From the IMG/VR virus record IMGVR_UViG_3300010232_000005: a stretch of DNA of 51,263 nt, one strand, 5' to 3'. Positions 1 to 51,263 of this stretch are shown here, piece after piece; positions within the stretch are counted from its first letter, which is position 1, and every line of letters starts with the position of its first letter. The position numbers were made by a program, and so were the translations under genes. Origin of the DNA: a virus. The notes beneath the pieces are model-generated. The model did not search any database. It saw only the letters and a list, made by a program, of their open reading frames with translations, and was not told the origin of the DNA.

Positions 1-55
1 GTGTCGAATCTTAACGTCGCCCGTGTCGGGTTCAAGGTGCCCGACCCAATCGTCG
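1..55. repeat. 55-bp exact terminal duplication (1-55 = 51209-51263), a signature of a circular or terminally redundant genome
   Basis: Read directly: gtgtcgaatcttaacgtcgcccgtgtcgggttcaaggtgcccgacccaatcgtcg occurs at both window ends. Confidence 0.95.
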
Positions 56-384
56 GCGGCGGCTTCGGCGGGATCGTCGCCGCCGTCGGTTGCGACCGCG
101 TCGCCGACGGCGTCTTCGAAGGCGTCGACGGTGTCGCCGAAGTCACGTTCGGCGTCGGTCGGGTCGCGGTCGTCACCGGTAAGGTGGTCGTCGGCATGAA
201 GCCCGTACGGGTCGCGGTCCTTCAATTCGGCGACGGCCGCTTCGACGTTAGCGGTTAGCGTCGGGTCGGCGTATTCGCCGTCGGGAAGGTTCGCCGCGAC
301 CGGGGCCGTGCGGTCGATATATTCGATTAGCCCGTCGGTCGATTTGTTTGCCGCGTCGAAGTCGGCGTCGGTGTGTCGCACCAT
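1..384 (-). CDS. N-terminal 128 codons of a wrap-around gene (MVRHT-class start). It continues in frame into 51208..50045, for about 515 aa in total.
   Basis: ATG at 384 (ATGGTGCGACACACC = MVRHT). The minus frame has no stop down to position 1. The phase matches the open frame entering the window end once the 55-bp duplication is accounted for. It is absent from the ORF track because it runs off the edge. Confidence 0.75.
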   Translation of the reverse strand, partial: MVRHTDADFDAANKSTDGLIEYIDRTAPVAANLPDGEYADPTLTANVEAAVAELKDRDPYGLHADDHLTGDDRDPTDAERDFGDTVDAFEDAVGDAVATDGGDDPAEAAADDWVGHLEPDTGDVKIRH

Positions 385-422
385 ATCTATACAGTACACC
401 CCCACGTACATAAGTGTGTCGG
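370..422 (-). promoter_or_regulatory. MVRHT promoter/start module, copy 1 (BRE-like CCGACACAC + TTATGTAC + GGTGCGACACACC box)
   Basis: The plus strand reads ggtgtgtcgcacc(370-382)...gtacataagtgtgtcgg(406-422). The same block is seen at 7 other sites. Confidence 0.7.
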
Positions 423-2882: not shown

Positions 2883-3604
2883 ACGACGTCGGCGACGTCG
2901 GCACCTTCGACGTGCGTCCCGTGTTCGTTTTGCTTGACATACACCATTTCGACGTCGGAACCGTAATCGTCGATTCGGTCGTCGCGGTCGGATTCGGTTG
3001 CGGCGATTACGACTTCCCACGCGTCGTCGGCGTTGCGTTTTACCGCCTTCGCGTGGTACCGGTCGAAAACGCGGCGAAGAATGTCGTCGGCCGCCCGTTC
3101 CCCGAACGACCACGCGTCGTCGATCCACGACCGAAACGCCTTCGCCGGGGCGACGATTGGTAATTCTGGAACCACATGGTTCACGTACCATTTGACCTTG
3201 GCCGACTTCGGTGCCTTCGCGTGTGGTTTCTCGTCGTCTGAAGCGTCGTCGTCTTCGTCGTCGGTGTCGTCTTCGACGGTCGACGTGTGTGGGTCGTCGG
3301 TGTGTGTGTGCAACCGTCGGAAAAGGGTACCCCCACCCCCGTCGGATTCGGCACCTTCGACTTGCCGTTCGATCCGGTCGATTCGTTGAACAAGGTCGGC
3401 GACCGACGCGTTAATCGACGATACGTCGTCTTCGATTCGCTGCAAGGCGTCGGTGTCGTCGCCTTCTATGTAGTTCAAGATAGCGCGTTCCAATTCGCTA
3501 CCGACGACGCCGTGTGTTCGACCGTGGGTATCGTCGACGTGGCTAACGAACCGTTTCCATAAGTCTTCGTCAATTCGAACGCCGATTTTCTTGTTACTTC
3601 CCAT
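2879..3604 (-). CDS. Ribbon-helix-helix (CopG/MetJ-like) DNA-binding regulator with an acidic linker and a C-terminal domain
   Basis: The N-terminus KKIGVRIDEDLWKRFVSHV has a beta-strand/helix RHH pattern. The gene lies next to a divergent control region. Confidence 0.55.
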   Translation of the reverse strand: MGSNKKIGVRIDEDLWKRFVSHVDDTHGRTHGVVGSELERAILNYIEGDDTDALQRIEDDVSSINASVADLVQRIDRIERQVEGAESDGGGGTLFRRLHTHTDDPHTSTVEDDTDDEDDDASDDEKPHAKAPKSAKVKWYVNHVVPELPIVAPAKAFRSWIDDAWSFGERAADDILRRVFDRYHAKAVKRNADDAWEVVIAATESDRDDRIDDYGSDVEMVYVKQNEHGTHVEGADVADVV

Positions 3605-10220: not shown

Positions 10221-11039
10221 TTATAGGCTGGGGTGAATTACCGTAATTGTTTTTGGCGATAGCGGGCCGATTGTAACCTCATATTGCCCGTATTCGGTAA
10301 AGTCTATTTCAAACGATACGGTCGCCCCTTGCCCGCTTCGCAATCGGCTTGCTTTTGCGTCGCGTACGATGTCGTCGATATATAGTTGTACTGTTTCTTG
10401 CCGGGTTTGCGAAGATATATTCTCAATATCACACTCGACGGTAAGCGTTTCGGCGACTTCGACCGCCGTATCCGACACCGTCAAATTCGAATACTGGAAT
10501 TCGAACGTGGTTTCGCCGTCGCTATCTCCGGGGTCGTCATTATCGGGGTCGGCGACTGATTCGGATATGTATACTTCTTTCCCCCATATTTCGGTCCCGC
10601 CTTGCGGTATTTCTTGCCCGTTGCGCCCAACCCCGGCCGACTCGTATACCTTTATTCCGGCGGCGGATCGGCCGACTTCATTTGTTATGTCGCTTCGAAA
10701 TTCGTTCGACGAAGTGTATTCGATATTAAATTCGTTATACGAATCAGTGTCTTTTATGAAAGAATCGAACTCAGAAAAAGAATCGAACTTATTTTCGAAG
10801 TTATTCCGGATTGTTTGGGCGCGTCTTTCCGATATTCCATTATCTATTAAGAATTGTTCGAATTCGTTGAAATTGCTTATATTGGCGTCTTCGTATGCGG
10901 ATAGAAAATCGTCCCAATCGCCGCCGAAGGCTTCTTGTAGGTCGATGGCTATCTGTTGACCGTCGAATTCTTGCTTAGTCGGTTGGCGAAGGCCCAACCA
11001 CACTAGTTTTTGTTCCTTTGTTAGTTGTGATTCCGTCAT
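10221..11039 (-). CDS. Tail/baseplate protein with a C-terminal CARDB/Ig-like domain
   Basis: The C-terminus VEVAETLTVECDIENISSQTRQETVQLYIDDIVRDAKASRLRSGQGATVSFEIDFTEYGQYEVTIG fits the CARDB-type beta-sandwich pattern. Confidence 0.4.
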   Translation of the reverse strand: MTESQLTKEQKLVWLGLRQPTKQEFDGQQIAIDLQEAFGGDWDDFLSAYEDANISNFNEFEQFLIDNGISERRAQTIRNNFENKFDSFSEFDSFIKDTDSYNEFNIEYTSSNEFRSDITNEVGRSAAGIKVYESAGVGRNGQEIPQGGTEIWGKEVYISESVADPDNDDPGDSDGETTFEFQYSNLTVSDTAVEVAETLTVECDIENISSQTRQETVQLYIDDIVRDAKASRLRSGQGATVSFEIDFTEYGQYEVTIGPLSPKTITVIHPSL

Positions 11040-11053
11040 AGGTGATTAACTGG

Positions 11054-12499
11054 TTAGGTGTTTATTTGTGTTTGCCCGCTAACGCCTATCGTCGTGTATC
11101 CTTCGGTGGTGCGTGACGTCTTGTCGATTGCGAACGTTCCCGATATGTCTTCTTTCGGCCAATCAATTAATACCGATTGCCCAACTTGAACATTCCGCCA
11201 TACCGACCCCGCAAGCACAAAAGTAATTGCCGAGTCTTGCCATGCGTTATCGTTCAAATAGCCCCGTGCCCGTGCCGCTAGCTGTTCGCGGGTTCGAAGC
11301 GACCCGTCATTGATCGGTTCGGATCGGGGCGCTTGTTCATTATAGAATTCTACCGATGCCGTATCTTCGTACGTTGCTTGTAGGTCGTCACGACCTTGTA
11401 TGGTGACGACATTCGTGACGTCGAAGTCGCGGTCGACGGTGACGTCGACGACTTGCGTGCCGGAATCGTCGCGTATTTCGTACAAAGCACCTTCGTCGCC
11501 GGCCGATTCGAAAATAAGTCGGTTGTTTTCGTCGGCAAAGACGGTAGCACCCGCTTCAATCGCTAACGAATCCGCTAACGATAGTATGGATTCGTTCACC
11601 GTTCGCGTGATTTGATCGTCGGTGTCGTCGATAACGTACGTTAGTGCCGTATTTCTATCATTCACTGTGAACGGTGTCGCCCGCGCCATGTCGATAGCCG
11701 CCGCCCTATGTTCCGGTAATGTCCCTTGCACTTCGAAACGATACCTTAGCGTGTGGGGCGTGTTCCCGGTGGTTATTTTGGCGTCTTCGACGTCGAATTG
11801 ATACGTTCGCCATGTCGCTATTCCGCGTATCGGTATTTCCCATTCGTACCCGATTCCGTCGCCGTCGACTAATTCGACATACACGTCGAAGACGTTACCC
11901 CGGTTATTTACGACCATTCGGGTTTCGAATTCGTATATTCGACGGCCCGGTGCCGCTTCCGACGGTACATTATCGAATGTGACTTCGTACGATCCCGATT
12001 CGCCTTCTAATATTCCGACGAAAATTGTATCACGACCGAAGTTATTGATTCCGGAAGAATCATTAGTTAATTCGAATATATCCGATTCCGACGACCAATT
12101 CGACGTATCATCGGCAAACGATATTTTCCGACTTGTGGTGTAATTTTCTATTTCTTTGTTGATTGCACGGCGGAGTATTTCGGCCCGCGACAACTCGATA
12201 AACGGGCGGTTTACCTTCCCGTGTTCGGCTTGCCCCGCTAACGTTTCCGCTTCGATTGTTAGCGTTAGGTTTCGCATTTGTTGGTTCGACGGCTTCCCAA
12301 TTATTTCGCCCGACCACTGTTTGTCGCCGCCTTCGAATATTTCGACGTCGGCACCGGATACGGCTAAGGATCGGTTCGACGAACTATTGGCGACGACTGT
12401 TTCGGCGGTTCCGATTGAATCACCCGACGGTTTTTCGTATTTTACGTCGATTATGTTGGTCGGTTCGGTGCCGTCAATTTCGACGATTGGTGTTACCAT
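11054..12499 (-). CDS. Tail tip/baseplate hub protein (Tal-like by position)
   Basis: 481 aa, second gene downstream of the tape measure. Confidence 0.45.
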   Translation of the reverse strand: MVTPIVEIDGTEPTNIIDVKYEKPSGDSIGTAETVVANSSSNRSLAVSGADVEIFEGGDKQWSGEIIGKPSNQQMRNLTLTIEAETLAGQAEHGKVNRPFIELSRAEILRRAINKEIENYTTSRKISFADDTSNWSSESDIFELTNDSSGINNFGRDTIFVGILEGESGSYEVTFDNVPSEAAPGRRIYEFETRMVVNNRGNVFDVYVELVDGDGIGYEWEIPIRGIATWRTYQFDVEDAKITTGNTPHTLRYRFEVQGTLPEHRAAAIDMARATPFTVNDRNTALTYVIDDTDDQITRTVNESILSLADSLAIEAGATVFADENNRLIFESAGDEGALYEIRDDSGTQVVDVTVDRDFDVTNVVTIQGRDDLQATYEDTASVEFYNEQAPRSEPINDGSLRTREQLAARARGYLNDNAWQDSAITFVLAGSVWRNVQVGQSVLIDWPKEDISGTFAIDKTSRTTEGYTTIGVSGQTQINT

Positions 12500-12500
12500 G

Positions 12501-12950
12501 TTATGACACCCATGCGTCTAAGAATGTCCATTCGACGGTACCCGAATAGGTTCGCGGCTTCGACGATTCCGTATCTTCGTCAACGCTAAGGTTCGTAATC
12601 ACACCGTTTATCGTTCGCCCGTCGTACGCAAACATGTCGAAGCCGTTCCCGGAGGTCCACCCCCATTCAAGGGCGGCACGTTCAAGTTCCCACCGGAAGC
12701 CGTAATCGTCGTCGCTATATGTCGACGAATTTGGGTAATCGCCCGAATCCATTCCCTGTATGTCGATTGTTATATCGTACGTTCGCAAATCCAAGACGAA
12801 CTTTCCCCCGACGACGGCACGCGACACCCCGGAAATAATCGAATCCGTCACTAACCCGTTCGATATTTCCGTTTCGACGCGGTTCGATTTTAGCTTGAAG
12901 ACTTCCGATCCGTCGTTCCGTCGTAATTCGACGCGTGTGTCGGTCGTCAT
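12501..12950 (-). CDS. Distal tail protein (Dit-like by position)
   Basis: 149 aa, immediately downstream of the tape measure. Confidence 0.4.
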   Translation of the reverse strand: MTTDTRVELRRNDGSEVFKLKSNRVETEISNGLVTDSIISGVSRAVVGGKFVLDLRTYDITIDIQGMDSGDYPNSSTYSDDDYGFRWELERAALEWGWTSGNGFDMFAYDGRTINGVITNLSVDEDTESSKPRTYSGTVEWTFLDAWVS

Positions 12951-12955
12951 ATATT

Positions 12956-14146
12956 CTACCGTGTACCCGCGACGTTAGTAGCCTTCTTGCCCATAGCCCG
13001 AACAAGCCGGTCGGCTAACGACTTCATTTCCCGGCGGTTCAATTCCGACGGGTCGAATTTCCCACTAATGTCGATTGTAATGTTTTCGACGTTAATGATT
13101 GTGCCGTCGTCGCCGCGTGAATCCCGTCGGGGTCGTTGTGCGGCTTCGACGATTGGTTGGGGTATGACGGCTTCGCCTTGATGTATTTCCGCCATGCCCG
13201 ACGATTCGACCATACCGCCGGATTGTGCCCCCGGAGCAGCCATGATTGTTTGGTCGCTTTCTTCTTGTATTTCCCGTCGAGTGCGTGCGGCCCGGTCGGA
13301 TTGCGACTCGGAACTTTCGTTAATTGAATCGAAGACGGGGCCGAATACCCGGTCTAACGTGCGTTCCCACGCCCCGACGAAGGTGTCGAAGACTTCGTCG
13401 GCTTCTTGAAGTCCCGACTTTATGCCCCCGACAATTCCTTCGTCGAAGACGTCGCGCATGAATCCGTTTACGAACCCGCCGAATATGGCGAAGGGGCCGA
13501 AGGCAATCGACGACGCGGCAAGTAACGCGTCGGATATACCGCCGCCTAACGATTCGCGTACGTTTGCGCCAAGCCCCCGTATCGCTTCCATAACACCCGC
13601 CGCTTGAAACCCTTTGACGACTAGCCCCCCAATCATTAGCCCTAACGCGGTCGCCCCAAGAAGTGCCGCCGGGGAAATGCTTAACGCCCGTGCAATGGTG
13701 CCGACTACTGTTCCGCTTAGTGCCGCATTAATCCCGCCGACGATCCACCCGCCGATACGACCGCCGATTGTTCGGGCTTTCCCCGCGACACGCTTCGCGG
13801 CTTCGAACGCTAACAAGTCTTCGAAGAAACTACCGCCCCCACCTCCGCCCTCGCCGCCCGATATTTCGCCGGATATGAACCCGCCGCTAAACATTCCTAA
13901 CAACCCGCTTGCGGTCGACCGTAATTGCCGCATATCATGGTCTAAAATCCCGACTTGCCGGCCCGCTTCCCCGCTATTGTCGGCGGTGGTGGTTAGCGTT
14001 CCGGCGAAATTGTTCATAGTGCCCGCCGACCGTTCCGTCGAATCCGCTAAGTCTTCTTGCGACGACTGCAAGGAATCAGTCTTTTCGCGGGCGTCGTCGG
14101 CACCCACGACACGGGCTTCGTATTCAATCTCCCCGATTTGAACCAT
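12956..14146 (-). CDS. Tail tape measure protein
   Basis: 396 aa with a helical N-terminus, then glycine-zipper hydrophobic segments (GGGGGGSFFEDLLAFEAAKRVAGKARTIGGRIGGWIVGGINAALSG...). It follows the G/GT chaperone pair. Confidence 0.7.
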   Translation of the reverse strand: MVQIGEIEYEARVVGADDAREKTDSLQSSQEDLADSTERSAGTMNNFAGTLTTTADNSGEAGRQVGILDHDMRQLRSTASGLLGMFSGGFISGEISGGEGGGGGGSFFEDLLAFEAAKRVAGKARTIGGRIGGWIVGGINAALSGTVVGTIARALSISPAALLGATALGLMIGGLVVKGFQAAGVMEAIRGLGANVRESLGGGISDALLAASSIAFGPFAIFGGFVNGFMRDVFDEGIVGGIKSGLQEADEVFDTFVGAWERTLDRVFGPVFDSINESSESQSDRAARTRREIQEESDQTIMAAPGAQSGGMVESSGMAEIHQGEAVIPQPIVEAAQRPRRDSRGDDGTIINVENITIDISGKFDPSELNRREMKSLADRLVRAMGKKATNVAGTR

Positions 14147-14194
14147 ATTCTTATGCGTCGTTCGCGGTGCCGGCCCTTATCGCTTCGTCACCGA

Positions 14195-14740
14195 TTAGCC
14201 CAAGCGGTTCATGCCGGTGGTGCTTCCGTTGTTCCCGTGCCGACGCCGTTCCCGTCGCCGCTGTTTTTCGATTTGTTCTTGCTTGTATTCGCCCCGTTCG
14301 TTCACTATCGCAAGCCGTTCGGCGACTTCCCGATCCGACATACCGTCGCTTCGTATCGACCCCTTCGACCATTCCATGCCCGGCCGTTCGAAGACGACGT
14401 CGGGGGCTTCGTGAACGGCGACGACCGCGATTGCGAAGGCGGCGGCGACCATAGCCACGACATACGACGCCGTGTACGCCGCGACAAGCGTTTGGGCGAT
14501 AGCCCCGACCGATAGGGCACGCCGAAGACGACGCCGACCACACGCCGCACACGCCCGTCTAACGGTCGCCGCAACGTCGTGTCGTTCGTGAACCGTGACG
14601 ACGTCCCGGTCGACGCCGTGTATATCGGTACGTGACACACCCTTTTCGGCTAAATACTGTTCGCTAACCGTTCGCTGTATCACCGCGTCGGCGGCGTCGC
14701 GGGCCGGCTTGCCGCGGACGGCCCGCCTTACACGTTTAAA
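14195..14740 (-). CDS. T-frame extension of the tail assembly chaperone (GT product made by -1 frameshift)
   Basis: Track ORF 14195..14785 lies in the -1 frame relative to the G ORF and overlaps its 3' end. The codons look genuine (…PDVVFERPGMEWSKGSIRSDGMSDREVAERLAIVNERGEYKQEQIEKQ…). Confidence 0.55.
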   Translation of the reverse strand, partial: FKRVRRAVRGKPARDAADAVIQRTVSEQYLAEKGVSRTDIHGVDRDVVTVHERHDVAATVRRACAACGRRRLRRALSVGAIAQTLVAAYTASYVVAMVAAAFAIAVVAVHEAPDVVFERPGMEWSKGSIRSDGMSDREVAERLAIVNERGEYKQEQIEKQRRRERRRHGNNGSTTGMNRLG

Positions 14741-18992: not shown

Positions 18993-19232
18993 CTATTGGC
19001 CGATTACAAGCACGAAGACGGTGTCGCCACCCGTGCCCGTGATCGTCGCTTGCGACGTGCCGCGTGCCGACCACCCGGCGTCGCCCGATTCGCCCGATAC
19101 GATTAGGACGGGGGCGGTGTCGTACGTTTCGTCGTACGATAGTGTGGTCGACCCGCCGTCGGTCGTCACTTCGTGGTATTCGACGTTTCCCCCTTCGTGG
19201 GTGGGGTCGCCGAACGCATTTTTCAGTTCCAT
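18993..19232 (-). CDS. Small head-associated protein (possible decoration protein)
   Basis: 79-aa acidic ORF immediately downstream of the capsid gene. Confidence 0.45.
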   Translation of the reverse strand: MELKNAFGDPTHEGGNVEYHEVTTDGGSTTLSYDETYDTAPVLIVSGESGDAGWSARGTSQATITGTGGDTVFVLVIGQ

Positions 19233-22506: not shown

Positions 22507-25080
22507 TTAGAGAACGCCGTCTAATCGGTCTTCGTATTTATTCCGGTAGCGGTATAACGTCGGCTTCGATAGTAACCCGTTCGCTTTGTGGTCGTAATTC
22601 GGCGACGCTTTAAGCCGTCGGTCTATCGCACGCTTCGCCCCTTCGACCGCACCGTCGGATTCGTCGAACGCCCGGCGAAGCACTTGTCGAATGTCTTCAC
22701 CTAATGCTTGTTCGATTTCCCGTTCCCGTGACGACCGACTTTTGATGTATTCGCCGATCCCGCCGACGACGTCGGCGTACGATTCGGCGTCGGCGTCGTG
22801 GTCGGACTTACACGACGCTTTGTTGAATTCGTTGGCACCGGGGACGTCGACGTCTATATCGACGTCGGCGGCTGCGTCGCGCACGAAGGTCTTCCGACAA
22901 TTGATGTGCGGGACGTGCCGGCGGAATTGAAGGTCGGGGAAGTGATAGTTAGACGCTTCCCGTTCAAGGCGCACAAGCGTCTTCATGTCGACGCTTTCGC
23001 CGGGGTAATTGTCGAAGGCTTCCGGCGTCCCCGACGCCGACCCCGTCGCTATCATTAGGTCTTCGCATAGTTGGGTCGTACGCGAATCTTCGGACCCTTG
23101 CCAATAGAATCGGAAGCGGTCGGCGTCTTCGCGGCTTTCGTACCCGACTTCGCGGGCTTCGTTAAGCACCGACGTCGTTTCCGTCCGGGCGACTGTTTCG
23201 AGGGCTTCGTCGTCGACGCCGGGGAACGCGTCGGAAAGACGGTCGGTAATAGAATCAAGCGACCACCCTTGCGGTTGGGTAAGCGAATCCCGCAAGGTGT
23301 CTTCTAAGGTTTCCCGAAGCGTTCCGGGGACCGATTGTATTTGATCGAATATCGCACCCCGGTCTATGGATTCTAAGACACCTTCGCGCACGTATTCCGG
23401 CACTTCGTCGTCGCGGTTCCATGCCCGCTTTTCTATGTCGTCGACGGAATCGGGTTGGATTTGCGACTTGTGTGCGTCGATTAGCGACCGTTCGTATGCC
23501 GCCCATTCGTCGTCGGATAGTGCCGCGACGACGCCGTCGCCACTATTCCCGTTTCCCGTATCACCCGCACCGTCGGCGGTTTGAAGGTCGGCCATTTGGT
23601 CAACGTCGGCTTCGTCGACGGGGACGAACGTGCCGGTGTTCGTGTTCTTGAAGCCTTCGACGCCGTCTTCGACCGCAAGTTCCCAGTGGGACGCCTTGTC
23701 GACCGACGCGAATATCCCACCCATATCGCCCCCGTCGTCTTCCGACGGTGTAATTTCGCCGTCTTCGACGACTAACCGACCGTCGCGGAACGACACCGTT
23801 GCTTCGGAATCTTCTAACGCCGTCGCCATTTCTTGCCCGGCTTCGGCTTGTTCGCGGATTAGCGACGCCCGCGTTTCCCGTTCTTCGGGGGTTTGTTCGC
23901 GTTCGAATTCGAAGACGACGTCGTCGCTAATGTCCGTCCATACCAATTGCCGGTTAAGCGATTCTTCTAACTGTTGCAGGGTGACGCGGAAGCCCCGTTG
24001 CTTGAACGCTTCCCTTTGGGATTTGTCGGTCGCCCGATTCACGTTTTCGAAGTCGAATCCTGCGTACGACGGATTGACTTTGAAGACCGACCCCAAGACC
24101 GTTACCCAATACTTCGACCGTTGTAATATCTGTAATTCCTGATAGTTCGCGGTGATCGGTTCGAACGCGACCGGGATTTTCGAATAGCCGACGCGGTGCC
24201 GTTCGCCTTCGTCTAGCTGCATTTGTTCGACGAAGGTATCCCAATCTTCGTCGGGGACCGTGCCACCGAATTCGTCGTTATAGTCGGGGGAAATGACGCC
24301 GGGATTCGAACCGGCGATAAGGTCTAAGCGTTCTTTTTCGGCAAGTTCTTCGACTAATTCGACTTCGTTTTGTGACTTTTCTAACGGGCCTTGCCCGTAA
24401 TGGCGGTCGGGGCGAATCGACCATGAAAACCACACGACTTCGTCGGTGTCGAATTTGTTAGCGACGTCCCGGTTCCGACGGCTAGCCTGAATGTACGAAT
24501 CGGTGATACCGAAGTCGTCGACTTGCTTAAACATGGTCGACGAATCGACGACGACGGCTTCGGCAAGGTCGTTCGTCCCTTCGTAATAGTGCTTTACCCA
24601 TGTCGCGTCGCCCAATTCTAACAGTATCCGGGACGTTCCTTCTAAGACGTCGTGAAATGGCAATTCCGGGTGTATGCTTCTAAGGTCGCGTTCGTATTCC
24701 GCTAACTTCGCGTCTGAAATAGTCGCGTCTTCGTCGCGTGCCCTTAGCGTCCATGACGCCGACGCGACGTCTTGGGAAAGGGTGTCGATATAGGCTTGAA
24801 CGACGGCGTTTGCCGACAAGTCCCGAAGGAATAGCGGGTCGTACGGCTTTCGCATACCGCCGGCTTCGACGACGGATTGTTGAATTGCGGCGAAGGCTTG
24901 TGCCCGGCGGTCGACTGATTGCTTTTCGACCACGCCGTCGCCGGAATTGTATCGACGACGACGGTGTCGCCATTCCGACCGTCGCCGCGAATCGCCCGCC
25001 GTTTCGTCGGGGGATCGGTCGACACCGCCTTTCGTGACGGGCGACGCAAGCGACCGAATAAAGTTGTCAAGACGCGACAT
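22507..25080 (-). CDS. Portal protein fused to a MuF/SPP1-gp7-like head morphogenesis domain
   Basis: 857 aa. The C-terminal half contains ETVARTETTSVLNEAREVGYE...FRFYWQGSEDSRTTQLCEDL, typical of the Phage_Mu_F domain. It lies upstream of protease and capsid. Confidence 0.7.
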   Translation of the reverse strand: MSRLDNFIRSLASPVTKGGVDRSPDETAGDSRRRSEWRHRRRRYNSGDGVVEKQSVDRRAQAFAAIQQSVVEAGGMRKPYDPLFLRDLSANAVVQAYIDTLSQDVASASWTLRARDEDATISDAKLAEYERDLRSIHPELPFHDVLEGTSRILLELGDATWVKHYYEGTNDLAEAVVVDSSTMFKQVDDFGITDSYIQASRRNRDVANKFDTDEVVWFSWSIRPDRHYGQGPLEKSQNEVELVEELAEKERLDLIAGSNPGVISPDYNDEFGGTVPDEDWDTFVEQMQLDEGERHRVGYSKIPVAFEPITANYQELQILQRSKYWVTVLGSVFKVNPSYAGFDFENVNRATDKSQREAFKQRGFRVTLQQLEESLNRQLVWTDISDDVVFEFEREQTPEERETRASLIREQAEAGQEMATALEDSEATVSFRDGRLVVEDGEITPSEDDGGDMGGIFASVDKASHWELAVEDGVEGFKNTNTGTFVPVDEADVDQMADLQTADGAGDTGNGNSGDGVVAALSDDEWAAYERSLIDAHKSQIQPDSVDDIEKRAWNRDDEVPEYVREGVLESIDRGAIFDQIQSVPGTLRETLEDTLRDSLTQPQGWSLDSITDRLSDAFPGVDDEALETVARTETTSVLNEAREVGYESREDADRFRFYWQGSEDSRTTQLCEDLMIATGSASGTPEAFDNYPGESVDMKTLVRLEREASNYHFPDLQFRRHVPHINCRKTFVRDAAADVDIDVDVPGANEFNKASCKSDHDADAESYADVVGGIGEYIKSRSSREREIEQALGEDIRQVLRRAFDESDGAVEGAKRAIDRRLKASPNYDHKANGLLSKPTLYRYRNKYEDRLDGVL

Positions 25081-46957: not shown

Positions 46958-47040
46958 TGACACGGGCCGGATTCGAACCGGCGAAGCCCTTCGGCAAGCG
47001 GTCTTAAGCCGCACGCGTTCGGCCGCTTTGCTACCGTGTC
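46958..47040 (-). tRNA. tRNA-Leu (anticodon UAA), type II with a long variable arm
   Basis: gacacgg-ta-gca..gcg-tgcgg-CTTAAGA-ccgct-tgccgaagggcttc-gccgg-ttcgaat-ccggc-ccgtgtc-a. The acceptor and T-arm are perfect. The D stem and the first anticodon-stem pair are imperfect. Confidence 0.6.
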
Positions 47041-47103
47041 GAAAGGGGGGCGGATATACGGGGTCCAGACACCGACGCCCCGCCCCTAAGACGCCGCCCC
47101 CGA

Positions 47104-47176
47104 TAGTCGGGCACGGATTCGAACCGTGGTCGCCGGTTCCAAAGACCGACATGATTGGCCGCTACACCACCCGACT
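47104..47176 (-). tRNA. tRNA-Gln (anticodon UUG)
   Basis: agtcggg-tg-gtgt-agcggccaa-tcat-g-tcggt-CTTTGGA-accgg-cgac-cacgg-ttcgaat-ccgtg-cccgact-a. From memory, the 5' AGUC... and GGCCAAUC D-loop resemble haloarchaeal tRNA-Gln. Confidence 0.7.
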
Positions 47177-49239: not shown

Positions 49240-49300
49240 GTAGGTGTCGCCCCTATCCGTCGGCTATACCGGCAAGTGGTAAAACCGTGTCGGTGTCTCA

Positions 49301-49888
49301 TTAGCTTGTAGATTCTTGTTTATCCTGTTTCCTCCCAGGCTCCCCCGGTGGTAGGTCGTGCCGCTTCCGCCATTTGGTGATTGTTCGGGGCGCACACCCC
49401 CACACTTCTGCAAGACGGTTACCCGACATTTTCTTTAATCCTTCCCGCATTTCGTCGGGGTCGCGCCAAGGTGCTTCGCCCCACATATCGTCGCCGTGAC
49501 GTCGAGCGTGGTCGGCTATATTTACAACTTCAATATTTGACGGTCGGTTATCCCACCGTATCCCGTTCTTGTGATGTATTTGTTTTGGTCCGCCGAATAA
49601 CTGATATGGATCGGCACCGTCGGCGATAGCGACCAATTGGTGTAAAAATAGACGGTCGTGTGTTCCGAACCCGGTTGACTCTATTTCGACATAGCCGTCG
49701 GTTCGTGTTCGATACATGGTTCGATTCACCCGTCGCGCTTCGACCGCGTGTTCCCACGGTTCTTTTCCCATGCCAAAGTACCCGCACCATTCGGGGTTAA
49801 GGCTGTCGGCCCTTGCAGCTTCGTGTGTTCGGGCTGTTCGACGAATATCAGATACCGGAATAGTTATTACCGATTTGCTGTTTTTCAA
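49301..49888 (-). CDS. HNH homing endonuclease with a C-terminal HTH
   Basis: LHQLVAIADG...QIHHKNGIRWDNRPSNIEVVNIADHARRH (HNH_3 pattern) and LAEVWGCAPRTITKWRKRH. GC is low. The only available in-frame start is TTG 49888. Confidence 0.75.
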   Translation of the reverse strand: MKNSKSVITIPVSDIRRTARTHEAARADSLNPEWCGYFGMGKEPWEHAVEARRVNRTMYRTRTDGYVEIESTGFGTHDRLFLHQLVAIADGADPYQLFGGPKQIHHKNGIRWDNRPSNIEVVNIADHARRHGDDMWGEAPWRDPDEMREGLKKMSGNRLAEVWGCAPRTITKWRKRHDLPPGEPGRKQDKQESTS

Positions 49889-50060
49889 AATAGAAAACCC
49901 ACATAGGAATTGAAACTTCGATTCGCTATGCCGGTCGGGGGCGTTGTCGTGTCACAACGGACAGAAAACCCTCGTAGGGATTGAAACACGTGTCGAAGGG
50001 TGTCGACGACACCGCCCCCGACCGTCACAACGGACAGAAAACCCTCATAGAGATTGTAAC
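49880..50060 (+). CRISPR. Mini-CRISPR array: 3 repeats (37 nt) and 2 spacers (34 and 36 nt), with no cas genes
   Basis: R2 (49951-49987) is gtcacaacggacagaaaaccctcgtagggattgaaac. R3 (50024-50060) matches R2 at 34/37. R1 (49880-49916) is repeat-like only in its 3' 25 nt (22/25). The spacers are 49917-49950 and 49988-50023. The strand was inferred from the ATTGAAAC 3' end. Confidence 0.8.
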
Positions 50061-51263
50061 GACCCGCGAAGGTCGGTGCGACACCGGTCGGGGCACGCGA
50101 CGATTAGGTCGACGTTTTCGGTCGTGTTCCACCGGCTAAGTTTCACGGTGTATTTGTTCCGGTACGCATGAAGCCGCTTCCCGCACCACACGCACCGGGC
50201 AAGTTCGTCGAAGACCGCGTCGCCCTTGTCGGTCGCTTCCCACCGGGCGGCGGGGTCGTCGAAATCGGCGTCGTCTTCGTCGTCGACACGTCGGATTAGC
50301 CCGGCGTCGCGGGCTTCCCGAAGCACGACACGCCAATTCGAATCGTTGTGTGCGACGCCGTCGGGCCGGCGAAGCCCGGTGCCGGGCGACCCGTGCCCCT
50401 TCACGCGGCGTTCGCCTTGTTTCCCCGTCGGGCACGCCGGGGCGTCGTCGACGTCGGTGTCGTCGTCGCCCGACGCGATCCATGCGGGGTAATATTTGAC
50501 GTCACGAAGCAAGTCGCGGAACTTGCCGGCGGTGACGGAAGCGAAGTCGTCGAACAGGTCTTCGACGTCGTCGGGAAGGTCGGCGTCGGCGACCGACCAT
50601 TCGGGGTCGTCTTCGCACGCGTCGCACACGGGGTCGTCTTCCGCCGGGTGCGACCGTTCGGCACCGACGTCGCGTTCGGCACCGCACCGGGCACATTCGA
50701 ACGTGTCGATATAGGCGTCGGCGACTTTTTCGGCGTCGTCGTCTTCGTACGGGTCGCCGTCGTATTCCGCCGGAACGTGTGCGTCGTCGCGCACGCCGAC
50801 TACGAACCGTGAAAGGGCAAGTCGGCGAACGATTCGGGCGGTGTCGGCCTTGTCGTCTTCGTCGGCGTCGTCGACCCATTCGTCGGGGTCGAAGTCGTCG
50901 TCGTCGACGCCATGTTCGAAGACCGTGTCGTGCGGAACGGTGACGCGGTACCACGACGGCGTTTTGTGGTTCGGCTTGTCGTCGGGCGTCGGGCGGTATC
51001 CGACCGCCGCTTCGAACGGGCACCCGTCGCCGTCGCAGGTGTGCCGAATGACGTCGCCGTCGTAATCGGTCGTAAGGTCGTGATCGGGGTGGGGGCACGT
51101 ATAGCCGCCCGTGAATCCAAGCGAATCGGCGTCGGCGGTGTCGTCGTATTGTTCGACGACCTTGTGAACGACGACGCCGTCTTCGACGACTGTGCGGATT
51201 GATTGGTCGTGTCGAATCTTAACGTCGCCCGTGTCGGGTTCAAGGTGCCCGACCCAATCGTCG
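50045..51263 (-). CDS. C-terminal part of the wrap-around MVRHT-class multi-zinc-finger protein
   Basis: The frame of track ORF 50045..50794 is open upstream all the way to the window end (…DDWVGHLEPDTGDVKIRHDQSIRTVVEDG…CPHPDH…CDGDGC…). CARCG/CDAC and CVWCG/CPDRC pairs are present. The last 5 codons overlap CRISPR repeat R3. Confidence 0.7.
   Translation of the reverse strand, partial: DDWVGHLEPDTGDVKIRHDQSIRTVVEDGVVVHKVVEQYDDTADADSLGFTGGYTCPHPDHDLTTDYDGDVIRHTCDGDGCPFEAAVGYRPTPDDKPNHKTPSWYRVTVPHDTVFEHGVDDDDFDPDEWVDDADEDDKADTARIVRRLALSRFVVGVRDDAHVPAEYDGDPYEDDDAEKVADAYIDTFECARCGAERDVGAERSHPAEDDPVCDACEDDPEWSVADADLPDDVEDLFDDFASVTAGKFRDLLRDVKYYPAWIASGDDDTDVDDAPACPTGKQGERRVKGHGSPGTGLRRPDGVAHNDSNWRVVLREARDAGLIRRVDDEDDADFDDPAARWEATDKGDAVFDELARCVWCGKRLHAYRNKYTVKLSRWNTTENVDLIVACPDRCRTDLRGSLQSL

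Follow-up and report, generated by a model that had tools for sequence, protein, structure and literature searches.

Miniature arrays of CRISPR (short palindromic repeats that are clustered and regularly interspaced) in which a virus carries one or two spacers that are aimed at related viruses make up a recognised class (Medvedeva et al. 2019, PMC6858448; review PMC11656645). Other known strategies by which viruses turn host repeats to their own ends are the repeat mimics termed Racr (Camara-Wilpert et al. 2023, PMC10651486) and the CRISPR RNA (crRNA)-like regulators termed Cracr (Liu et al., bioRxiv 10.1101/2024.10.29.618823), the latter reported for types V-A, I-B, I-C, I-E and I-F in bacteria, with type I-D and archaeal viruses absent from the reports. 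The subject of the present analysis is a stretch of viral DNA of 51,263 nt, IMG/VR virus record IMGVR_UViG_3300010232_000005 (the whole of it is 'the window' in what follows), which carries a genuine virus-borne, cas-less mini-CRISPR array of a haloarchaeal type I-D repeat family. An earlier note, made from the letters of the DNA by themselves, had seen there a two-spacer array borne by a virus, and so it is: three repeats (R1, R2 and R3) enclose two spacers (S1 and S2) in the complete genome of a tailed virus. Rather than a new kind of system, the array represents a viral weapon that is already known, in an unusual form. What is unusual is the presence of type I-D repeats in a haloarchaeal tailed virus, a pair of spacers that read as convergent and overlapping, the position next to an HNH endonuclease gene to which the array is linked, and a repeat fused to the end of a viral gene.

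Comparison with described systems

Like the mini-arrays of the portoglobovirus SPV1/SPV2 (PMC6858448) and of phages (PMC11656645), which have one or two spacers between repeats of a cellular family, the present array lies in a viral genome without cas genes, has no match to that genome and occupies a region that varies among close relatives, and it most probably belongs to this class, of which repeats (nearly) identical to those of the host and a target in a related virus are further marks. The differences from the arrays described are several. It is in a tailed virus of haloarchaea that the repeats, type I-D in family, are carried here, and they agree with those of cellular arrays at no more than 32 of 37 positions; no host-like leader was found, and the outer repeats are degenerate; the spacers would derive from overlapping sequence on opposite strands; and the whole is linked to an HNH insertion and has become joined to a gene at the 3′ end of the latter. 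Also, whereas the SPV spacers match a sister virus (PMC6858448), no target has been found for those of the haloarchaeal viral array.

With Racr (PMC10651486) the array shares the character of a viral mimic of host repeats, without cas genes, that could bind Cas6 and Cas7; what defines a Racr besides is the formation of aberrant Cas subcomplexes and the inhibition of interference, and of these traits only the mimicry of repeats is seen. However, Racrs are mainly described as solitary repeats, and here there are three repeats with two spacer-sized inserts, and R2 looks competent for crRNA production. Cracr and the cellular CreA/CreR offer another parallel, since viral arrays of that sort are short with degenerate repeats, and Cracr arrays with two or three spacers are known (bioRxiv 10.1101/2024.10.29.618823). 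Cracr spacers, though, have 9 or more matching nt proximal to the protospacer-adjacent motif (PAM) in promoters of cas or creT, and a search of the one type I-D locus available gave nothing of the sort for the viral array.

The repeats and their cellular family

By their sequence the viral repeats belong to a haloarchaeal repeat family that adjoins type I-D cas genes. The family has the form GT.G..AC.G...GAAAACCC-N5-GGGATTGAAAC, is 37 nt long and was found in five metagenome contigs of 49–67% G+C. The contig designated L026 has 53 repeats directly downstream of cas6, cas10d, csc2, csc1, cas3′, cas4 and cas1d, i.e., of a type I-D locus. The exact repeat of the viral array is GTCACAACGGACAGAAAACCCTCGTAGGGATTGAAAC. 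Among cellular repeats the closest to R2 is that of contig L029 (32/37), and identity to that of L026 is 30/37. Only one family-invariant position, position 4, has been lost from R2, and this retention of all the others suggests a usable crRNA unit and not a pure decoy.

Which way does the array read? One of the changes in R3, G28A, is also present in the terminal repeat of the L026 array, and since in cellular arrays the degenerate repeat is the last one, the plus strand would be the crRNA strand and the left the promoter side. At that left end, R1 has a 5′ part of 13 nt that is unrelated to the repeat, followed by 24 nt that match R2 at 21 positions; it departs from the family-invariant positions 4, 7, 8, 10 and 29, and its handle, ATTGAAAC, is intact. 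The 69 nt upstream of R1 (GC 0.46 in comparison with 0.58 genome-wide) may be a promoter or leader, a candidacy that comes only from TATA-like AT-rich motifs; they have no similarity to the leader of the L026 array or to any locus fetched.

No further copy of the repeat was found elsewhere in the viral genome, and IMG/VR yielded no array or repeat of this type I-D family. As for cas genes on the virus, tblastn with the Cas6, Cas10d, Csc2, Csc1, Cas3′, Cas4 and Cas1d proteins of L026 gave noise (E ≥ 0.09), and in a profile scan the ten largest open reading frames match only virion or unknown PHROG families.

A separate observation on the cellular side of the family is that in two contigs, L028 (minus strand, approximately 157–1366) and L027 (719–1495), two type I-D repeats flank inserts of about 0.7–1.1 kb in place of a spacer. 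The L028 insert codes for a VapB antitoxin and a PIN-domain VapC toxin, so that toxin–antitoxin cassettes are to be found inside or between CRISPR repeats in cellular contigs.

Two spacers complementary at their 3′ ends

The central finding concerns the two spacers. The 3′ 18 nt of S1 (its positions 17–34, ggtcgggggcgttgtcgt) agree with the reverse complement of the 3′ 18 nt of S2 (its positions 19–36) at 17 of 18 positions, the lone mismatch being a T in S1 for a G; this match, first pointed out in the earlier note, was reproduced. Among the 1275 real type I-D spacer pairs of the L026 array the best reverse-complement window of 18 nt reaches 14/18, and a simple estimate puts the random-sequence expectation of 17/18 at <1e-5. 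The complementarity is non-random. It is also precisely placed, as it stops at the 3′ boundary of S1 and at that of S2, with the pairing on the inner side ending at the S1/R2 boundary. With spacers of 34 and 36 nt, random placement of a stem or duplication of 18 nt would fit both boundaries in ~0.3% of cases (1/17 x 1/19; ~1 in 300).

Convergent protospacers that overlap on opposite strands of one locus must yield complementarity ending at both spacer 3′ boundaries, and for that reason a single-locus origin is favoured: both spacers would have been taken from one locus of ~52 bp, reconstructed as TTCGATTCGCTATGCCGGTCGGGGGCG[T/G]TGTCGTCGACACCCTTCGACACGT, in which the two protospacers overlap over the PAM-distal 18 bp. 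We consider that this has an even chance of being what happened. It was one of the two readings offered in the earlier note (one ~52-nt locus, both strands, one single-nucleotide difference), and the geometry, the spacer lengths and the precedent in L026 fit it best, while its protospacer has not been found.

The lengths of the two spacers, 34 and 36 nt, are within the 33–38 nt of the cellular type I-D array of L026 (n=51). In that array (10722–14560) there are two pairs of spacers in the same register that are 31/37 and 32/37 identical, which points, in this repeat family, to one protospacer being repeatedly sampled from diverged variants of a target. Primed or hot-spot adaptation in types I-B, I-E and I-F yields clusters of spacers from one target region. 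The viral array resembles such clusters, and L026, in having several spacers from what would be one locus, with differences that point to diverged variants; the L026 pairs, though, are of the same strand and register whereas S1 and S2 are of opposite strands and offset. A single-locus origin is further supported by the near-invariance of R2, the terminal-like character of R3, the lack of a self-target, the genuineness of the insertion (see below) and the agreement with the known class of viral arrays that have one or two spacers. The reconstructed 52-mer, read from its sequence, has stop-free reading frames rich in G+C at third codon positions, as expected of coding DNA of a haloarchaeal element.

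On this origin a sequence of events can be proposed. From the polarity of the array S2, farther from the presumed promoter side, would be the older spacer and S1 the newer, and the single difference in the overlap suggests that the source of S1 was a variant target, one base different, to which S2 was no longer a perfect match. Such a pattern of S1 after S2 is what hot-spot or primed (interference-driven) adaptation would give. The array unit, or the tail of a host array containing it, would later have come to adjoin a homing-type HNH endonuclease gene in the viral genome. Host type I-D Cas6 and Cascade would then make at least the S2 crRNA, which lies between the intact R2 and the near-intact R3, and this crRNA would attack a competitor, most plausibly a virus or a plasmid. 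Each of the two guides would have a PAM and a seed of its own, one set at either end of the locus.

Could the complementarity have been present in the target beforehand? If the target had an imperfect inverted repeat of 18 bp (in a terminator or a regulatory hairpin, say, or as terminal inverted repeats), both spacers could have come from the same strand of it. The single mismatch would then be natural, with no need for a second variant of the target, and S2 already holds a palindrome. It is also consistent with this that the junction specific to a single locus has no match in metagenomes (see below). However, the ends of both spacers would have to coincide exactly, by accident, with those of the arms, an inverted repeat of 18 bp is needed besides the palindrome, and no target of such a kind was found either; this origin is very unlikely. 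The palindrome itself, reported in the earlier note, is present and is a perfect 7-1-7 one, GGTGTCG-A-CGACACC; there are 20 perfect 7-1-7 palindromes genome-wide, which corresponds to a ~0.9% chance per 36-nt segment, and makes it moderately unusual. Less came of a further copy of ccggtcgggg, which the earlier note had placed downstream one base away from its real position, 50084–50093. Since this 10-mer occurs 7 times in the genome, and here falls within conserved coding sequence (...CPDRC...), its presence is uninformative and is ascribed to chance.

Another possible source of the complementarity is the array itself. A template switch could have generated S1 as an inverted copy of the 3′ end of S2 and the adjoining repeat, the array then being the non-functional remnant of a host array. 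The reverse complement of S1 does agree with S2 positions 19–36 together with R3 positions 1–16 at 27 of 34 positions, and the 5′ end of S1 is a near-inverted copy of the 3′ end of the repeat (12 bp); the unrelated 5′ part of R1, the degeneracy of both outer repeats and the failure to find targets would also suit a rearrangement scar. Yet the identity is uneven, 17/18 in one part and 10/16 in that adjoining it, which a single duplication would not give, S1 is exactly of spacer size and ends exactly at R2, and its 5′ end aligns about equally well to the 5′ end and to the 3′ end of the repeat, which suggests that at least one of these resemblances is due to chance. Such a scar is, in our opinion, decidedly unlikely.

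The search for a target, and what weighs against a single locus

A single-locus origin is unproven because its protospacer has been found nowhere, and it is this, with several features of the repeats and of S1, that weighs against it. The search that the earlier note had proposed was run, and the 52-nt locus was found neither in viral, metagenome, phage, plasmid or protein collections nor in the relatives fetched, though as negatives these are weak, the collections searched being without even the virus's own contig. In IMG/VR the 18-mer core is present in 18 contigs, all with random flanks (22–32 of the 52 positions), and the spacer-specific 5′ parts of S1 and of S2 gave no match there. A 24-mer over the reconstructed junction (GTCGACGACAMCGCCCCCGACCGG) has no match in JGI metagenomes, BLAST of the spacers against GenBank phages and plasmids gave noise only, and the peptides VSKGVDD[T/N]APDRHSES and FDSLCRSGAVSSTPFDT were unmatched in 5.8 billion proteins, where a match of 16 residues may exceed the E-value limit. 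In the stretches (partial genomes) of related viruses that were fetched the best agreement was 23/34 for S1 and 26/36 for S2.

The repeats contribute their share of difficulty. A search of 185,579 species genomes with a pattern of the 3′ 25 nt gave no identical cellular repeat among the matches listed, only a cyanobacterium, and a repeat identical to the viral one was also not found in plasmids or JGI metagenomes, so the match is at the level of the family only. The invariant GGG of the repeat hairpin is mutated in R1 and also in R3, which makes processing of the S1 unit especially doubtful. In addition, a single-locus origin does not predict that the 5′ 14 nt of S1 pair with the 3′ end of the repeat more strongly than 99.5% of random 34-mers, and priming has, to our knowledge, not been shown for type I-D.

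The complete viral genome has no protospacer for S1 or S2. Three sites in it did attract attention. A match of 17/18 to the core at 19106–19123, in a 79-aa gene that follows the capsid gene (18993–19232, minus strand), is a chance match of common codons, since 17 of 17 homologues read YD..D.AP.LIVSGES, unlike the peptide that the spacer encodes. The portal gene at 23007–23042 was considered as a target of S2 (26/36) and rejected: 1–2% of random GC-rich 36-mers do equally well, the amino acids fail to align, and the closest relative has 25/36 at the site. Regulation of the virus's own genes was considered for an 11-nt seed match of S1, TTCGATTCGCT, that follows GTC at 3428–3441; this sits within a 241-aa gene on the other strand, with 18/34 for the whole of S1, and is treated as chance. 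In contigs L025–L029, including the cas locus of L026, which is the only type I-D cas locus available, GTN is nowhere followed by a seed that matches at 10 or more of 12 positions.

Predicted fold of the transcript

A quite different way of regarding the complementarity is that it serves in the RNA itself. The earlier note had as its second possibility a stem in the transcript that blocks crRNA maturation and suits a decoy, and had proposed folding 49880–50100. For these 221 nt the predicted fold is of −81.4 kcal/mol (z = −3.3), and the stem appears in it. In the array alone the S1:S2 helix has 17 bp (11 and 6 bp around a U-C mismatch) and is in the minimum-free-energy structure, with pair probabilities of 0.94–1.0. 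A second helix, of 12 bp, is predicted between R1 positions 23–34 and S1 positions 2–14 (49902–49930; the R1 3′ end is CATAGGAATTGA) with a probability of 0.98, and the hairpin of R2 competes with pairing to the 5′ part of S2 (probability ~0.5). Thus the stem is robustly predicted, while the decoy role rests on an in-silico fold whose mismatch is uncompensated.

The proposal that the array is a structured decoy or regulatory RNA, Racr- or Cracr-like, whose transcript has been selected for its fold and weakens host type I-D immunity, is unlikely, though it deserves a hearing. S1 would be an antisense 'lid' on the handle region of R1 (12 bp) and on the PAM-distal half of S2 (17 bp), and the RNA would soak up Cas6 or Cas7, or free the S2 crRNA only under some conditions. 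Apart from the existence elsewhere of viral repeat mimics (Racr, PMC10651486) and crRNA-like regulators (Cracr, bioRxiv 10.1101/2024.10.29.618823), this would be in keeping with the high probabilities of both helices and the z-score of the region, with the engagement of nearly the whole of S1 in predicted pairing, with the degeneracy of the outer repeats, only R2 being intact, and with the finding of a target for neither spacer. The pairing of S1 with the 3′ end of the repeat is stronger than 99.5–99.9% of random genomic 34-mers, i.e., it is in the 0.1–0.5% tail. However, natural spacers of the repeat family in L026 and L029 (n=56) pair with their own repeat 3′ ends as strongly or more so, down to −20.7 kcal/mol, and the R1/S1 helix is because of that only a modest oddity. 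The long stem has its U-C mismatch uncompensated; its exact end at the spacer boundaries is explained by adaptation, and a selected stem need not show it; the sole type I-D cas locus available has no seed of the kind described above; known Racrs are typically solitary repeats; and there is no second copy of the array, hence no evidence from covariation.

That the array is an RNA device against type I-D immunity in which S1 is a built-in antisense, pairing with the handle region of the defective first repeat, R1, and the PAM-distal half of S2, is quite improbable. In such a device the one intact Cas6 site, that of R2, would be inside a closed stem of 17 bp, and the RNA could hold Cas6, Cas5 and Cas7 in dead-end complexes, or keep the S2 guide masked up to its processing. 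With a single-locus origin, by contrast, the S1:S2 stem would be a by-product of where the spacers came from and not a selected feature. Pairing between spacer and repeat lowers processing in other CRISPR types, and the predicted fold may well affect crRNA yield here.

The virus and the site of insertion

The carrier is a haloarchaeal tailed virus. Its first 55 nt (1–55) are identical to its last 55 (51209–51263), and the gene of a 524-aa protein, P0001, spans both ends, from which it follows that the viral genome, of ~51.2 kb, is complete and circular (or terminally redundant). Among its products are a prohead protease, the terminase, the portal and tail proteins and a major capsid protein that shares 47% identity with its counterparts in HHTV-2 and HCTV-2, tailed viruses of Haloarcula; GenBank phages include no nucleotide relative. 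Nearly all the viral genes are on the minus strand and the array is on the plus strand (Table 1).

Table 1. Parts of the array and the adjoining genes, with positions in the window (the Rfam CRISPR-DR60 scores of all three repeats are sub-threshold)
Feature	Position	Strand	Remarks
HNH_3 endonuclease gene	49301..49771	-	Pfam HNH_3, E 2.3e-8; divergent from array
AT-richer stretch, 69 nt, unique to virus	49811..49879	+	upstream of R1; homology of HNH-carrying relatives stops at 49810
Whole array, R1-S1-R2-S2-R3	49880-50060	+	37-nt repeats
R1, degenerate/truncated first repeat	49880..49916	+	25/37 to R2; CRISPR-DR60 21 bits (sub-threshold)
S1, 34 nt	49917..49950	+	3′ 18 nt (49933-49950) = arm A; 5′ 14 nt can pair with R1 3′ end
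R2, canonical 37-nt repeat of the type I-D family	49951..49987	+	CRISPR-DR60 35 bits (sub-threshold), E 5e-5
S2, 36 nt	49988..50023	+	3′ 18 nt (50006-50023) = arm B; palindrome 49999-50013
R3, terminal-like repeat	50024..50060	+	34/37 to R2, 3 changes including G28A and A34T; CRISPR-DR60 29.5 bits (sub-threshold)
Gene of conserved 524-aa acidic protein, 3′ part	50048..51262, wraps to 411..1	-	C-terminus rewritten by R3 insertion

The 524-aa protein leads to the closest relatives, L020 (90% identity) and L021/L022 (76%), in which the intergenic DNA at the array site is ~190 nt in comparison with ~800 nt in the virus. In pairwise alignment a block of 765 nt (49295–50059), in which both the HNH gene and the array lie, stands in for 158 nt of the closest relatives, with breaks at 50060/50061 and at 49294/49295. 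Some relatives have HNH homologues of 55–68% identity at the same locus, without repeats and with shared sequence that ends at 49810, and others have neither the HNH gene nor the array; the module unique to the virus is one of 250 nt, comprising the 69 nt of AT-richer DNA and the array. The comparison of array content among relatives that had been suggested in the earlier note gave nothing to compare, as no relative fetched carries an array, and the repeat is in none of those reached via the 524-aa, the HNH and the 79-aa proteins. The site 49295–50059 is a polymorphic hot spot and possibly a locus at which related viruses compete.

R3 directly abuts viral coding sequence at 50060/50061, and its minus strand provides the last five codons and the stop (50045–50047) of the 524-aa gene. 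The C-terminus of the protein is ...RGSLQSL* in the virus versus ...RGSTTDLTTDE* in relatives. Since an R3-encoded ...SLQSL end is on record from a second contig (46,099 nt), the R3 junction is not an assembly artefact.

In relatives (L020 2530–2545, corresponding to window 50058–50064) the sequence found after R3 in the virus has a GTC triplet immediately 5′ of it. For type I-D the reported PAM is GTN. If a host spacer had recombined with a viral protospacer, the latter being the sequence to the right of R3, and the array had been captured in this way, the GTC would be compatible with it, but with a chance of 1 in 16 for this the match is only suggestive, and the proposal is weakened by R3 looking more like a terminal repeat.

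Elsewhere the viral genome holds a gene for a transcription factor that resembles TFIIB (Pfam TFIIB, E 3e-18), together with a pair of tRNA genes, Leu-TAA and Gln-TTG, for which the coordinates 414–1481 and 46958–47176 are given jointly.

Implications

If the structural interpretation of the transcript were the true one, archaea would gain a new counter-defence based on RNA, and were the array a device with S1 as built-in antisense, no RNA anti-CRISPR or self-masked crRNA would have been described earlier for type I-D or for a virus of archaea; the device would lie beside a homing endonuclease gene, and the two together could be a small locus for competition with related viruses. If, as favoured, both spacers were instead taken from one locus, mini-CRISPR arrays, shown so far to work in viruses of Sulfolobales, would be extended to the tailed viruses of haloarchaea and to type I-D repeats. 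The pair of spacers would be a natural two-guide design, on both strands of a site of 52 bp and with independent PAMs and seeds, that is hard to escape by a single mutation, and the one base that differs in the overlap would preserve, like a fossil, the trace of a competitor met twice in succession, each time as a different variant. The adjoining HNH gene would then suggest a small locus for competition with related viruses, which co-conversion in mixed infection could spread.

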